From NCBI RefSeq assembly GCF_988243305.1, contig NZ_OZ547136.1: a DNA stretch of 64,000 nt, one strand, 5' to 3'. Below, piece after piece: positions 28,785-31,361 of this stretch. The notes under the pieces are model-generated. The model saw only the letters and a list, made by a program, of their open reading frames with translations. It had not been told where the DNA came from and did not search any database. How positions within the stretch are numbered: position 1 is the stretch's first letter; every line of letters starts with the position of its first letter. The position numbers were made by a program, and so were the translations under genes.

Positions 28785-29273
28785 GTGAGTGCACCGGCAA
28801 CCATTCTTGATATGTGCTGTGGCAGCCGTATGTTCTGGTTCGATAAGAATGACGACCGGGCGATATTTAGCGATATCAGAAAAGAAGAGCACACATTGTG
28901 TGATGGACGACGCCTGATTATCAGTCCTGACCTGATAGCAGATTTTCGAGCATTACCATTTGCAGACGCATCGTTTCCGGTTGTTGTATTCGACCCTCCG
29001 CATCTTGAGTGTGTTGGTGATAAAGCCTGGATGGGAAAGAAATATGGACGGTTGAATAAAGATACCTGGCGTGATGATTTGCGGCAGGGATTTAAAGAAG
29101 CTTTTCGTGTGTTGTGGCCACATGGCGTTCTGATTTTTAAATGGAATGAAACGCAAATATCTGTCCGCCAGATATTGGCACTAACCGACGCGAAACCAAT
29201 CATCAGCCAGCGCACCGGTAAGAACGATAAAACACATTGGATTATTTTTGTGAAGGAGGCGACCAGTGGGTAA
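28785..29273 (+). CDS. small SAM-dependent methyltransferase (putative DNA MTase)
   Basis: GTG start after AGGAGG; motif I-like ILDMCCGSRMFWF and motif IV-like VVFDPPH. Confidence 0.6.
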   Translation: MSAPATILDMCCGSRMFWFDKNDDRAIFSDIRKEEHTLCDGRRLIISPDLIADFRALPFADASFPVVVFDPPHLECVGDKAWMGKKYGRLNKDTWRDDLRQGFKEAFRVLWPHGVLIFKWNETQISVRQILALTDAKPIISQRTGKNDKTHWIIFVKEATSG

Positions 29274-29520
29274 ATCAAAATGCCAGGTTTATGGCAACAA
29301 GATAGAACCGTGTACGACCCTGGCAAAATCCCTTGAGCATGATGCTGAATACACGATGCGAAAAGGTCTGCTGATATACAAAATCTGGAATGAGAGTTTA
29401 ACTCGCGGTCCTGATTTTGTGATGTTGCGTTCCGGTGAATTTTCTAAATTACCAGTTCGGGTTTCATTTTGTCCGTTCTGTGGTGAAAGTCTGAAAACGT
29501 GGGAGAACAGAAATGAATGA
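29266..29520 (+). CDS. hypothetical Cys-containing small protein
   Basis: 84-aa ORF with C..C and CPFC pairs. Confidence 0.45.
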   Translation: MGKSKCQVYGNKIEPCTTLAKSLEHDAEYTMRKGLLIYKIWNESLTRGPDFVMLRSGEFSKLPVRVSFCPFCGESLKTWENRNE

Positions 29521-29824
29521 AATTAAAGAAATACCAGTAGTACGTGATGAATATGGCTACTGGACGCATCCTGAATATGAAAAATTCTGTGACGGTCGGG
29601 AATATATTTCAACGGAAGAGTTTAACGCCTGGATGGAGGAAAATAATCTTCAATACGTCCTCTGCTTCAGAGATGAAGGATGTGCTGACCTTGATGCGTG
29701 TGATGCTGATATTTCTGCATGGGAACCGGAACGACCAGAGGGCAATGGATGGTTTATTGGTTCAATACATGACACCGAAGATGGCCCGGTTTGTGTATGG
29801 CTGAGAAATAAGGCCGAAGCATAA
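29513..29824 (+). CDS. hypothetical acidic protein
   Basis: 103-aa ORF overlapping the previous stop. Confidence 0.45.
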   Translation: MNEIKEIPVVRDEYGYWTHPEYEKFCDGREYISTEEFNAWMEENNLQYVLCFRDEGCADLDACDADISAWEPERPEGNGWFIGSIHDTEDGPVCVWLRNKAEA

Positions 29825-30300
29825 AGGCTATAAACCGACTAACAACTAAATACTGAAGATTTAAATCAGAAACGATTTTTATTAAATCCTTAACCGGAGG
29901 GATTCCTGCACCCTCAGAACATCAGGAGGCCGTCCGAAAGGGCGGTAGTGAAATGCGAAAATTCAAAATAATTATTGAAACGGGAATAGCCGGTGGAGAT
30001 TTCGAGGATGAATTCGAAGTGGATGATGATGCAACACCAGATGAAATACAGGATGAAGCTAAAGATATTTTCTTTAACTACTGCAATTACTCATACCACG
30101 AAATAAAAGACGAAGAGGAAGAACAAAATGGCTGATTTTGGTTCAACTAAATATAACGCCAGTTTTGAAGAATGGCATGAACTGTTAATGGATTATGCAG
30201 AGTTACGCGGTGGAAGTGCCGCTGATGCTGAAGCATGGCGTGATGATTATGAAGCAGGGAAAACACCGGTCGAAGCATATTGTGATGAGTGGGGCGATGA

Positions 30301-30660
30301 ATGAGCGAGATTAATTATCAGGAAGGGCATGAAAAGGTAGGGCAGGCAAAACCAGTGGCATGGCGATATCGCTACGTGAAAAAAGGCGTTACAGACTTTC
30401 AGGGGAAGCAGTGGGTTGGTGACTGGAAATATGTCCCGACAAAAGAGGATTGTAACGACAGACCAAACTATGAAATTCAGGCGTTATTCACGGCCCCGCC
30501 AGCTTCGGTGACATCAGAAGGACTGGTTAAAGCTGTGCGCTTTTATGAACAGGTACGGCGTGAGGATCCGCCAGTTGAAACCGGAGCATGGAAAGACGCT
30601 ATTGACTGGGTACTCAAGGAGGCCTGCCTGGTTGTAAACACGGGCATCAAAGGAGGCTGA
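30301..30660 (+). CDS. hypothetical protein
   Basis: 119-aa ORF in a tightly packed same-strand array. Confidence 0.45.
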   Translation: MSEINYQEGHEKVGQAKPVAWRYRYVKKGVTDFQGKQWVGDWKYVPTKEDCNDRPNYEIQALFTAPPASVTSEGLVKAVRFYEQVRREDPPVETGAWKDAIDWVLKEACLVVNTGIKGG

Positions 30661-30876
30661 ATGGGTATTGCCGCAAGTTATACCATGCATCTCTATTGTG
30701 ATTGCCGCCAGTGTACGGATGGCAAATATCAGTCGCCAGATTTTGGTGAGTATATCGGTACGTCATGGGCTGGCTGTGCAAAAGAGGCACGTAAAGATGG
30801 GTGGCGAATAAGTGCCGACAAAACGCGTGCTTTTGCGCCAAGGCATAAAATTTTGAGGAGCAACAAAGGAGAGTGA
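30661..30876 (+). CDS. hypothetical Cys-rich small protein
   Basis: 71-aa ORF with CDCRQC...C pattern. Confidence 0.4.
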   Translation: MGIAASYTMHLYCDCRQCTDGKYQSPDFGEYIGTSWAGCAKEARKDGWRISADKTRAFAPRHKILRSNKGE

Positions 30877-31097
30877 TGTGCCTACATTATTCAGAAAAGA
30901 ATATCCGCGAAAAAGTAGAGCGACAGAATTTTTGTTTCTCATTCTGTTTATCGTGTTGATGATACCGATATCCCCGTTAATTCTGGTATGGGGAATCGGA
31001 AAAATAATTGAGCCAGTTATTGAATTGTATAACGACGTGGTATGGGCTCCGTTCAACACACTGCACAATAAAATTAATCCGTATAAGGAAAACTGAT

Positions 31098-31361
31098 ATG
31101 GCAACTTTGACAAAAAAAGAACAGGCATGGTTGAACGAATTACAGGACGTTCTTGATCGCTGTCCATCACCGAAAAAAATTGGTTTTTACACCATTGGCG
31201 ATAAAAGCATTTACCTGTATGACCTGCGCCGCATGGATGAAATCATGGAGGCTCTTGATAATCGTTCGTCAATGGATTGGTGTGTTGCTGTCCATGATAT
31301 GAATGCAGGGTTTGATGAAAAGATTTTGTTCCCCTCATCAGTTGAAAGCACTGCGGGTTAA
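31098..31361 (+). CDS. hypothetical protein
   Basis: 87 aa from ATG 31098 (MATLTKKEQAWLNELQDV...). Confidence 0.45.
   Translation: MATLTKKEQAWLNELQDVLDRCPSPKKIGFYTIGDKSIYLYDLRRMDEIMEALDNRSSMDWCVAVHDMNAGFDEKILFPSSVESTAG

Follow-up and report, generated by a model that had tools for sequence, protein, structure and literature searches.

Eight small early genes, two of them encoding predicted metal-binding proteins, in the accessory block of a lambdoid Escherichia coli prophage

Introduction

The described loci closest to the one analysed here are two stretches of small genes in lambdoid phages. The nin region of lambda (ren and ninB to ninI, between P and Q) lies on the rightward early transcript and is made up of tightly packed small ORFs whose stops overlap starts. 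The exo-xis or ea region of lambda, P22 and Stx phages is located early-left, is likewise transcribed early and holds small, non-essential mosaic ORFs, mostly of unknown function. Its genes include orf60a, orf63, orf61, orf73, ea22 and ea8.5 besides variable small ORFs, with Orf73 and Ea8.5 being small zinc proteins (PMC9239242, PMC8614690). Two papers ascribe to these genes, the nearest studied neighbours of the present ones, a modulating influence on the lysis-lysogeny decision and not an anti-defence role (PMC8614690, PMC10789677).

Single small proteins from other elements also invite comparison. YdaE of the K-12 Rac prophage (56 aa, annotated as zinc-binding) is a small Cys-rich prophage protein encoded among small early genes. 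The P1-like plasmid prophages P7 and D6 carry the uncharacterised genes upf87.4 and orf99, respectively, in accessory operons together with ead/Ea22-like and DUF4014 genes. Besides, Ocr, ArdA, Ugi and p56 exemplify small, acidic, early phage inhibitors that mimic DNA. Here, we analysed a block of small genes in a 64,000-nucleotide stretch of DNA (the window; contig NZ_OZ547136.1 of assembly GCF_988243305.1) against this background.

Results

Gene content and layout of the block

Positions 29266-31361 of the window hold eight ORFs of 58-119 aa, all on the plus strand. An earlier note had counted nine tightly packed ORFs at this place; the run itself, its strand, its coordinates and the size range stand, while the count comes down to eight, the number also reached by PGAP, which calls exactly the same eight CDS in E. 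coli chromosomes of 99.5% identity. The block and its surroundings comprise the following features:

25936-26709, minus strand: S24 repressor (Pfam)
28716-29273, plus strand: orphan DNA methyltransferase, exact start codon uncertain, overlapping the start of ORF1 by 8 nt
29266-29520, plus strand: ORF1, 84 aa, GTG start, pI 8.8
29513-29824, plus strand: ORF2, 103 aa, pI 4.1
29825-29952, plus strand: non-coding spacer and mosaic junction between ORF2 and ORF3
29953-30135, plus strand: ORF3, 60 aa, DUF7167 family
30128-30304, plus strand: ORF4, 58 aa
30301-30660, plus strand: ORF5, 119 aa, near-neutral
30661-30876, plus strand: ORF6, 71 aa, pI 9.0
30878-31096, plus strand: ORF7, 72 aa, GTG start, DUF4014 family
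31098-31361, plus strand: ORF8, 87 aa, ATG start, pI 4.7
31372-32274, plus strand: ORF9, 300 aa, modular with a C-terminal DUF551, the next cargo gene before hok/sok
33169-34608, downstream of the block: RusA and DUF968 (HNH-like motif), nin-type functions (Pfam)

Starting from the methyltransferase/ORF1 junction, the distances between consecutive genes are -8, -8, +128, -8, -4, 0, +1 and +1 nt; packing is therefore tight, with the 128-nt gap at 29825-29952 as the single exception. An SD sequence lies upstream of each of the eight ORFs, and translational coupling within the block is plausible. No promoter or terminator consensus was found on the plus strand of 29266-31361, nor any Rfam RNA family within the cluster. 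The start of ORF8 had previously been placed at a TTG at 31008, yielding 117 aa and an 89-nt overlap with ORF7. We rejected this version and prefer the ATG at 31098, because phrog_1714 is then matched over positions 1-87 of 87 (E = 6.1e-51) and PGAP calls the same 264-nt gene.

All eight ORFs match PHROG families (E from 8.5e-23 to 8.5e-56), and pairwise comparison with diverged copies gives dN/dS ratios of 0.02-0.42 across all eight, which are thus genuine genes under purifying selection. The exact sequence of each of the eight proteins is already public.

A mosaic site in the early-right operon

The block is part of an early-right operon, that of a lambdoid E. coli prophage resembling Qin and Rac, and sits there between the replication genes and hok/sok-DUF968-RusA-Q. 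Pfam matches give the gene order Cro, YdaT, HTH_36, a truncated DUF977, the methyltransferase, ORF1-8, DUF551, hok, DUF968, RusA and Q. The methyltransferase is matched by the PADLOC models MTase_II (3.7e-71) and oMTase (1e-48) and by phrog_954, 'DNA methyltransferase' (2.9e-86); close relatives have a full-length DUF977 gene in its place. As an orphan enzyme gene overlapping ORF1, it lends the locus an anti-restriction flavour. Its presence in only nine of 67 related viral contigs makes the link to the block a loose one, and this counts against anti-defence.

Across the same 67 contigs, the genes occur in 28 presence/absence patterns: ORF2 follows ORF1 in 52 of them, and ORF3-8 are found in only 9-17. 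While some part of the block was found in 2880 of 5426 E. coli genomes, no more than 61 have 80% or more of it. The commonest cargo at the site are DUF551-type proteins (40 related contigs), to which ORF9 belongs (Pfam DUF551 at 5.7e-21, phrog_60 at 2e-55); alternative cargo includes proteins of the Ead/Ea22-like kind and an HNH nuclease, besides a weak Mom-like match. Outside this type of prophage, block genes turn up in the early-left accessory region of Stx phages, in mEp460 (ORF1, ORF2 and ORF5 in its early region) and in the P1-like P7 and D6, and relatives of ORF3, ORF4, ORF6 and ORF8 in phages of 55-160 kb, including a Kuttervirus of the Ackermannviridae; we take these phages to be virulent. 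The block is, in other words, a mosaic cargo site of individually mobile accessory genes, as is ordinary for lambdoid prophages.

Relation to the nin and exo-xis regions

The earlier description of the region as nin-like is borne out by position: with the replication genes on one side and Q on the other, the block occupies the same place on the rightward early transcript as lambda nin, and like nin it consists of small ORFs packed tightly, with stops overlapping starts. The resemblance does not extend to the proteins. Tblastn comparison of ORF1-9 with the lambda nin interval (38000-44600) gave a best E value of 0.24, and none of the Nin Pfam families (NinB, C, D, E, F, G, H, I and Ren) matched at E <= 0.1, so that the ORFs do not resolve into the housekeeping nin families that the earlier note had considered as a possible outcome. 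Direct homologues do exist in exo-xis regions, namely of ORF3, ORF4 and ORF7 in Stx phage ArgO145 and of ORF6 and ORF7 in ST2-8624 (gp08 and gp07, between ea22 and xis). Homologues of ORF3, ORF4, ORF6 and ORF7 are hence found between the recombination genes and xis/int, and the block genes belong to the shuffling accessory pool of the ea/exo-xis type, not to the fixed nin set. The position differs, as the block is early-right after the replication genes whereas exo-xis is early-left. In lambda itself, the int-to-bet interval (27500-32200: xis, ea8.5, ea22, orf61, orf63, orf60a, exo) gave no tblastn match better than E = 1.8, and no block ORF matched Pfam Ead_Ea22, DUF1317, DUF1382 or DksA/TraR. 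The whole K-12 Rac prophage shows no homology to the block ORFs.

ORF1 and its Cys motif

ORF1 starts with a GTG 6 nt past a GGAGG SD, matches phrog_4030 (5.7e-37) and has dN/dS ratios of 0.26-0.42. Its four cysteines, C6, C16, C69 and C72, follow the pattern KC-x9-PC ... NFCPFCG. Among 77 relatives of 23-79% identity, there is no variation at C6, C16, C69 and P70 and hardly any at C72. The cysteines are thus kept as expected of metal ligands, which supports the earlier suggestion of zinc binding, and ORF1 probably contains a four-Cys metal site, as predicted from this conservation. In comparison with a zinc ribbon, one canonical CPFCG knuckle is combined with an unusual C-x9-C pair; CPxCG knuckles are typical of nucleic-acid-binding zinc ribbons. 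Zinc-ribbon or DUF6980 models were matched weakly by only one to four of the 77 relatives.

An exhaustive profile search retrieved 222 cluster representatives of the ORF1 family (50%-identity clusters, E <= 1e-3). The family is stand-alone and about 85 aa in size; it has no Pfam entry. No relative was found in the PDB, where weak matches to cereblon CULT and RpoM zinc ribbons (E 0.07-0.7) were dismissed as chance, being gone or insignificant with family profiles. An AlphaFold2 model from a 32-sequence alignment was unusable (pLDDT 44). Upf87.4 of P7 and orf99 of D6 are homologues with 74% and 70% identity, respectively. These belong to another phage type and another genome position, and the P7 operon has an annotated C1 repressor operator upstream. 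YdaE shares no homology with ORF1 or ORF6 (hhalign probability 0.1-0.4%), its cysteines being spaced C-x4-C ... C-x3-C.

ORF6 and its Cys/His motif

In ORF6, the earlier note had pointed to the string CDCRQC as a sign of zinc binding. The CxCxxC part is indeed conserved, with C13-x-C15-x2-C18 invariant among 34 relatives, while the fourth ligand appears to be His62 and not a fourth Cys: C39 shows no conservation, whereas H62 is close to invariant, with a Cys in its place in one Vibrio relative. This His-to-Cys swap and the conservation fit metal binding, and a CCCH site made up of C13, C15, C18 and H62 is the probable prediction. The protein also has a conserved DGWRIS...APGHK motif. Fold comparison gave no informative match, and when fibronectin type II repeats in the PDB were hit by the profile of ORF6 (E 0.03-0.9), this was judged to be chance. 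The DksA/TraR C4 zinc finger (CxxC-x17-CxxC; Pfam zf-dskA_traR), the type found in lambda Orf73, matched neither ORF1 nor ORF6, whose spacings (C-x9-C...C-x2-C and C-x-C-x2-C...H) differ from it. The ORF6 family is common to temperate lambdoid, P1-like and large phages including Ackermannviridae.

The remaining ORFs and the spacer

ORF2 matches phrog_1372 at 8.5e-56 (dN/dS 0.11-0.21). Only profile positions 55-158 of 194 are covered, so other members of this family are longer. Of its five cysteines, just C26 and C94 are retained in two relatives. The spacer that follows contains no ORF of at least 20 aa; it carries an SD (AGGAGG, 29924-29929), a 6-bp hairpin with a GAAA loop (29930-29945) and then 7 nt to the ATG of ORF3. 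Homologues of ORF3 have this SD-hairpin element upstream too, with a U.G pair changed to C-G, and in phage mEp460 it precedes a different gene. The fold of the whole spacer, 29825-29952, is not unusual (z = -1.36).

ORF3 passes the gathering threshold of Pfam DUF7167 (1.2e-14, 54.5 bits against a cut-off of 24.4, profile 1-60 of 60) and matches phrog_1997 at 2.7e-30; its dN/dS is 0.02. It is strongly acidic, with 20 D+E against 5 K+R and a pI of 4.05, and has relatives of 40-43% identity in Enterococcus phages of 91-144 kb. The similarly acidic ORF4 (16 D+E against 4 K+R, pI 4.05) overlaps ORF3 by 8 nt, matches phrog_519 at 8.5e-23 (dN/dS 0.17) and is related at 55-61% identity to proteins of Vi01, Det7 and further phages of ~157 kb from Salmonella, Klebsiella and Escherichia. 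ORF5, whose start overlaps the ORF4 stop (ATGA), matches phrog_660 (1.8e-42) and phrog_26213 (1.2e-29) with a dN/dS of 0.20-0.21. ORF9 also matches phrog_660 (8.4e-14); direct BLASTP between the two was insignificant, and we do not claim a shared module.

ORF7 passes the gathering threshold of Pfam DUF4014 (1.7e-25, 89.7 bits against a cut-off of 23.2, profile 2-72 of 72) and matches phrog_1832 at 2.9e-45, with a dN/dS of 0.16-0.35. It is a predicted small single-pass membrane protein, with a hydrophobic segment at residues ~17-41 (hydropathy peak 3.0 over residues 19-37) after a basic N-terminus (5 K+R against 1 D+E in residues 1-16). Some records label DUF4014 homologues 'O-polysaccharide acetyltransferase inhibitor' without support; we could trace this label to no paper. 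ORF8 (dN/dS 0.13) has relatives in ~55-60 kb phages of Salmonella and Escherichia and in Klebsiella, Serratia and Vibrio phages. PDB searches with the single sequences of ORF2, ORF3, ORF4, ORF5, ORF7 and ORF8 returned nothing significant.

Comparison with proteins of known function

As the earlier note had it, none of the proteins is recognisable: within ORF1-8, Pfam matches are restricted to DUF7167 in ORF3 and DUF4014 in ORF7, NCBIfam and the PDB gave no match, and no similarity to a functionally characterised protein of the anti-defence, toxin or host-takeover type was detected. PADLOC, run on ORF1-9, gave nothing at E <= 0.1, its sole match being the upstream methyltransferase; this silence is uninformative on anti-defence, because PADLOC covers defence systems and not anti-defence proteins. 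ORF2-4 resemble Ocr, ArdA, Ugi and p56 in being small, acidic (pI about 4.05-4.14) and early, and they adjoin an anti-restriction-type methyltransferase gene. The likeness is a functional analogy only, with no sequence relationship in Pfam or the PDB, and DNA mimicry by ORF2-4 is pure inference. In the literature, no paper found mentions the WP accessions of the block, DUF4014, DUF7167, DUF6980, Upf87.4 or the PHROG ids, and peptide strings from the block did not occur in the supplementary files of PMC12373910, a screen of phage accessory genes.

Discussion

Our best guess, to which we assign a probability of roughly 0.45, is that the block is early-lytic cargo serving host takeover or anti-defence, and not replication, recombination or morphogenesis. 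The genes would be silent in the lysogen, judging from gene order, and would be transcribed from the cro-side promoter once the S24-type repressor is inactivated, or upon infection. Being too small for enzymes, the products would most likely act as stoichiometric binders: ORF1 and ORF6 as small zinc-stabilised domains, to go by their conservation, ORF2, ORF3 and ORF4 as strongly acidic binders of a decoy or mimic type, and ORF7 as a single-pass inner-membrane protein. Together, they may modify functions of the host or of rival elements in lytic growth. Support for host takeover or anti-defence is circumstantial and consists of the early-operon position, the overlapping orphan methyltransferase, the relatives in large or virulent-type phages and the strong acidity of ORF2-4. 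The portrayal of the exo-xis genes as modulators of lysis versus lysogeny counts against an anti-defence role. A lytic-phase role is favoured over a lysogeny-specific one because relatives of ORF3, ORF4, ORF6 and ORF8 occur in the 55-160 kb phages presumed virulent. A bolder version, in which ORF1 and ORF6 found two uncharacterised zinc-binding families that inhibit a host defence or a core machine (e.g. RNA polymerase) and the block is an anti-defence island, strikes us as unlikely.

Among the alternatives, the proteins might tune the phage's own lysis-lysogeny decision, or the timing or efficiency of induction, via host transcription, chaperone or stress pathways, without countering any defence. 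We consider this, too, rather unlikely, even though it has the exo-xis precedent on its side: the region as a whole is reported to be dispensable and expressed early and to shift both the lysis-lysogeny balance and host gene expression (PMC8614690, PMC10789677), and the small zinc-finger protein Orf73 of lambda is reported to reprogram RNA polymerase (PMC9239242). The Stx-phage homologues of ORF3, ORF4, ORF6 and ORF7, between the recombination genes and xis/int, point the same way, yet the eight ORFs lack homology to the lambda int-to-bet interval (E >= 1.8) and matches to Ead_Ea22 or DksA/TraR in Pfam. Moreover, four of the ORFs have relatives in phages that we take to be virulent, which would have no lysogeny decision to tune.

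Somewhat less probable still is that the proteins, in the manner of several lambda nin genes, help phage DNA metabolism (replication, recombination or modification), for instance with a small zinc-ribbon DNA binder that cooperates with the replication protein, methyltransferase or nucleases encoded nearby. The nin position between the replication genes and RusA/Q would suit such helpers, as would the overlap of ORF1 with the methyltransferase gene, the CPxCG knuckle of ORF1, the HNH and Mom-like genes as alternative cargo, and the ORF1 homologues that follow a primase-annotated gene in P7 and an HNH nuclease gene in D6. However, this very variety of left neighbours (DUF977, methyltransferase, primase-annotated gene, HNH) means that ORF1 has no fixed partner, which counts against a role in DNA metabolism, as do the lack of similarity to lambda nin (E >= 0.24) or a Nin Pfam family and the strong acidity of three proteins out of eight, a property that speaks against DNA binding.

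It is improbable that these are moron-type genes, expressed by the resident prophage for the benefit of the lysogen through superinfection exclusion or lysogenic conversion. ORF7 would be the most plausible candidate, as small single-pass membrane proteins are a common format for exclusion proteins, and the unsupported acetyltransferase inhibitor label and the occurrence of at least some part of the block in more than half of complete E. coli genomes go in the same direction. Against this, no promoter- or terminator-like signal brackets any gene on the coding strand, the genes are tightly packed inside a repressor-controlled early operon, an annotated C1 repressor operator likewise precedes the operon with the P7 homologue of ORF1, and relatives occur in phages assumed to be virulent. 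Finally, that some or all ORFs are conserved filler or annotation artefacts and not functional genes is very improbable: while every database labels all eight 'hypothetical' and a minus-strand ORF at 30763-31170, overlapping ORF6-8, matches phrog_20982 at 1.7e-56, so that conserved DNA alone can evidently yield protein 'families', the purifying dN/dS values in eight of eight, frames and lengths maintained down to 23-48% identity, conserved ligand-type residues, an SD before each ORF and Pfam families for two of them all speak for genes. We judged that minus-strand ORF to be a probable annotation shadow despite its match.

In summary, thousands of E. coli genomes already list these genes under hypothetical proteins, PHROG families or DUFs, and the way in which they are arranged here is routine for the mosaic accessory genes of lambdoid phages, with little significance as it stands. 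The modest value of the analysis lies in a clean eight-gene model with corrected starts and in both Cys motifs proving to be true, conserved sets of predicted ligands, the ORF1 family being large yet absent from Pfam. Since four of the families have relatives in large or virulent-type as well as temperate phages, they are reasonable and cheap candidates for anti-defence and host-takeover screens. If one of them inhibits a defence system or a host machine, this would provide an annotation for a gene present in roughly half of the sequenced E. coli strains.

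Gene models and genomic context

The small genes ORF1-ORF8 (29266-31361) belong to a Qin/Rac-like lambdoid prophage, close relatives of which carry dicB and ydfABC. Their models were read from the sequence and its six-frame ORF list, and their surroundings were assigned by Pfam and Rfam, as listed here.

Features of the early region and its flanks
25936-26709, - strand: S24/LexA-type repressor (Pfam)
26702-26917: P22-type Cro (Pfam)
26914-27339: YdaT (Pfam)
27347-28324: HTH_36 protein (Pfam)
28365-28640: DUF977, N-terminal two-thirds only (91-aa ORF, profile positions 1-81 of 134)
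28716-29273: orphan DNA methyltransferase, overlapping ORF1 by 8 nt
29266-29520, + strand: ORF1, 84 aa, GTG start
29513-29824, + strand: ORF2, 103 aa
29953-30135, + strand: ORF3, 60 aa
30128-30304, + strand: ORF4, 58 aa
30301-30660, + strand: ORF5, 119 aa
30661-30876, + strand: ORF6, 71 aa
30763-31170, - strand: antisense ORF, 135 aa, overlapping ORF6-ORF8 (phrog_20982, E 1.7e-56)
30878-31096, + strand: ORF7, 72 aa, GTG start
31098-31361, + strand: ORF8, 87 aa
31372-32274: 300-aa DUF551 protein (ORF9)
32396-32721: hok/sok (Rfam sok 117 bits, E 4.7e-27; Hok Pfam 3.5e-23)
33169-35426: DUF968, RusA, Q
36001-37050: second DNA methyltransferase (N6_N4_Mtase, 2.1e-44), downstream of Q

The cluster sits at the nin position within the early-right operon, in agreement with the earlier note, which had called the region nin-like and had counted nine same-strand ORFs in it; the same-strand run was borne out, the number is eight. 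A TTG start at 31008, previously chosen for the last ORF (117 aa), was rejected, as it would give an 89-nt overlap with ORF7. From the ATG at 31098, ORF8 matches phrog_1714 end to end (positions 1-87 of 87), and this is the start called by the NCBI pipeline PGAP in 99.5%-identical chromosomes. From the methyltransferase gene onward, the junctions measure -8, -8, +128, -8, -4, 0, +1 and +1 nt, and a purine-rich Shine-Dalgarno (SD) sequence precedes every ORF of the block, whose sole gap (29825-29952) holds no ORF of at least 20 aa.

Directly downstream of the cargo block and still within the early-right operon, hok/sok forms a complete type I toxin-antitoxin locus. Just 5' of the DUF968 gene, the Hfq-binding sRNA isrK is weakly matched at 32730-32811 (E 0.0065; 27.2 bits, short of the gathering score of 50). 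With the methyltransferase gene downstream of Q, which is followed by tRNA genes in close relatives, the prophage carries two methyltransferase genes.

Coding status and family assignment

ORF1-ORF8 are genuine genes. Each matches a phage protein family of the PHROG collection (E 8.5e-23 to 8.5e-56), and public databases already list all eight exact sequences under 'hypothetical' or 'prophage' names, e.g. in E. coli 55989. Comparison with diverged copies in other phages (Nei-Gojobori) gave dN/dS values of 0.02-0.42 across the eight ORFs, all of which are under purifying selection. The antisense ORF remains free of stops in relatives whose sense proteins are as little as 68% identical, at an apparent dN/dS of 0.30-0.66 versus 0.16-0.35 for the sense frame. 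Since it has no ATG where the phrog_20982 profile begins and is absent from the PGAP calls, and since synonymous divergence of the sense frame is not depressed across 30763-31170, it is probably an annotation shadow, phrog_20982 itself likely having been built from mis-called antisense ORFs.

That none of the proteins is recognisable, as the earlier note had put it, agrees with our searches: NCBIfam and PADLOC returned no match for ORF1-ORF8, and the Pfam thresholds were passed by ORF3 (DUF7167) and ORF7 (DUF4014) only, with no match to DksA/TraR or Ead_Ea22. Membership of all ORFs in known housekeeping nin families was looked for and not found, as nothing in the lambda nin region resembled them (best E 0.24). 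The K-12 Rac prophage, compared in full, gave no similarity either (best E 0.65), and YdaE, the annotated zinc-binding protein of Rac, was discarded as a relative (hhalign probability at most 0.4%).

Mosaicism of the cargo site

Of 5426 complete E. coli genomes, 2880 carry some part of the 2.2-kb block, at a median of two and up to nine places per genome; at least 80% of it is present in only 61. We surveyed 67 viral contigs with a close ORF1 relative and enough flanking sequence. DUF977 precedes ORF1 in 54 and ORF2 follows it in 52, while only 9-17 contain ORF3-ORF8 and nine contain the methyltransferase. Among the 28 presence/absence patterns, the full arrangement of the window occurs once. 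The eight genes are tightly packed and individually mobile. The commonest cargo following ORF1-ORF2 consists of DUF551/Ea22-type modular proteins (40 contigs); Ead_Ea22 proteins, an HNH nuclease, DUF1367, a weak Mom-like match and several unknowns also occupy the site. The DUF551/Ea22-type proteins (31372-32274 and contigs labelled L015-L094) differ from one another in entire modules, with Pro-rich linkers at the joints. Both ORF9 and ORF5 match phrog_660; direct BLASTP between them gave no significant similarity.

At the upstream edge, the orphan methyltransferase gene takes the place of the DUF977 C-terminus, leaving the N-terminal ~80 residues. In close relatives the DUF977 gene is complete (140 aa) and the methyltransferase is absent. 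Relative to the copies in the closest chromosomes, ORF1 shows 92% identity, ORF5 and ORF6 show 99-100%, and ORF2, 3, 4, 7 and 8 show 100%, a difference that suggests a recombination joint near this point. The exchange looks like a recent module replacement.

The homologues reach well beyond this prophage. Phage mEp460 has those of ORF1, ORF2 and ORF5 in its early region, beside Eae- and YfdR-type genes. As for P1-like phages, the ORF1 homologue of P7 (Upf87.4) lies in an operon downstream of the annotated C1 operator, and that of D6 (orf99) is followed by ead/Ea22-like, ORF6-like and DUF4014 genes. Relatives of ORF6 and ORF4 occur in phages of ~155-160 kb, among them Vi01, Det7 and PS5, the last a Kuttervirus (Ackermannviridae), those of ORF3 in 91-144 kb Enterococcus phages, and those of ORF8 in Vibrio phages and in Salmonella/Escherichia phages of ~55-60 kb; outside the temperate lambdoid and P1-like groups, we take the phages with ORF3, ORF4, ORF6 or ORF8 relatives to be virulent. 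The record PP818812.1, 'Actinobacillus phage vB_Apl-pPE4' (hits H1 and H49), carries ORF3-ORF7 at 93.6% DNA identity to this prophage and an ORF6 protein 98.6% identical to that of the E. coli prophage, so that its host label looks odd given near-identical enterobacterial sequence.

Conserved sequence elements

The earlier note had pointed to Cys patterns in at least two ORFs, and these motifs are conserved across 77 (ORF1) and 34 (ORF6) family members. A word-indexed search with ORF1 found enterobacterial relatives only; at E <= 1e-3, 222 cluster representatives emerged from an exhaustive profile search, almost all stand-alone proteins of ~75-110 aa. In the 77 aligned members (23-79% identity), C6, C16, C69 and P70 are invariant and C72, F71, G73, G57, G34 and L19 nearly so, giving the signature KC-x9-PC ... 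SG ... NFCPFCG. Pfam lacks a model of this family (only four weak matches, to DUF6980), and the PDB searches gave no relative. In ORF6, the CDCRQC cysteines stood up as proposed (C13, C15 and C18, invariant down to 36% identity together with D14, A43, G47, W48 and P60), while the fourth Cys, C39, is variable and the putative ligand set includes H62 instead. H62 is near-invariant, and its replacement by Cys in a Vibrio cholerae member is what a metal ligand would allow. Metal binding by both proteins is putative. Of the five Cys of ORF2, C26 and C94 alone are retained in two relatives.

The sole good SD of ORF3 (AGGAGG, 29924-29929) lies 23 nt from the ATG (region 29924-29955), separated from it by a 6-bp hairpin with a GAAA loop (CCGTCC-GAAA-GGGCGG, 29930-29945). 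This element is kept 5' of ORF3 homologues, where a U.G pair has become C-G in ArgO145 and 689R5; it also precedes another gene in mEp460. It may represent a split ribosome-binding site, for which T4 gene 38 is a precedent, or a module-junction linker.

Possible roles of the block

We tentatively rank a host-interaction or anti-defence role first, at a probability of roughly 0.45, because four of the families have relatives in presumably virulent phages, the block abuts an orphan methyltransferase gene, and DNA-modification-type genes serve as alternative cargo at the site. The block would be transcribed only after repressor inactivation, by read-through from the cro-side promoter, and its products would be made only in lytic development; judging from their size (58-119 aa), they would act through binding rather than catalysis. 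ORF1 and ORF6 may be small metal-stabilised domains, ORF2-ORF4 (pI about 4.05-4.14, net charges about -17, -15 and -12) acidic binders of the decoy or mimic type, and ORF7 may cross the membrane once, with its basic N-terminus in the cytoplasm.

The main rival, which we consider unlikely, is developmental tuning in the manner of exo-xis proteins, which reportedly shift host gene expression as well as the balance between lysis and lysogeny (PMC8614690, PMC10789677, PMC10834534). Stx phage ArgO145 has homologues of ORF3, ORF4 and ORF7 in its early-left exo-xis/ea accessory region, and gp08 and gp07 of Stx phage ST2-8624, homologues of ORF6 and ORF7, lie between ea22 and xis in the early-left region; the lambda int-to-bet interval, which holds the exo-xis genes, showed no similarity to the block (best E 1.8). 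Somewhat less probable still are auxiliary roles in DNA metabolism. Prophage-expressed morons are improbable: no + strand promoter-like or terminator-like sites were found within the cluster. That the ORFs are non-genes is very improbable, in view of their family matches and purifying selection.

A host-takeover or anti-defence function, as first proposed for these genes, stands as reasonable but unproven. Worth carrying forward are the large four-Cys family of ORF1, which lacks a Pfam entry, the CCCH family of ORF6, which also has members in large phages including Ackermannviridae, and the conserved SD-hairpin junction 5' of ORF3. Taken as a whole, the block is a mosaic of lambdoid accessory genes of a routine and already catalogued kind.
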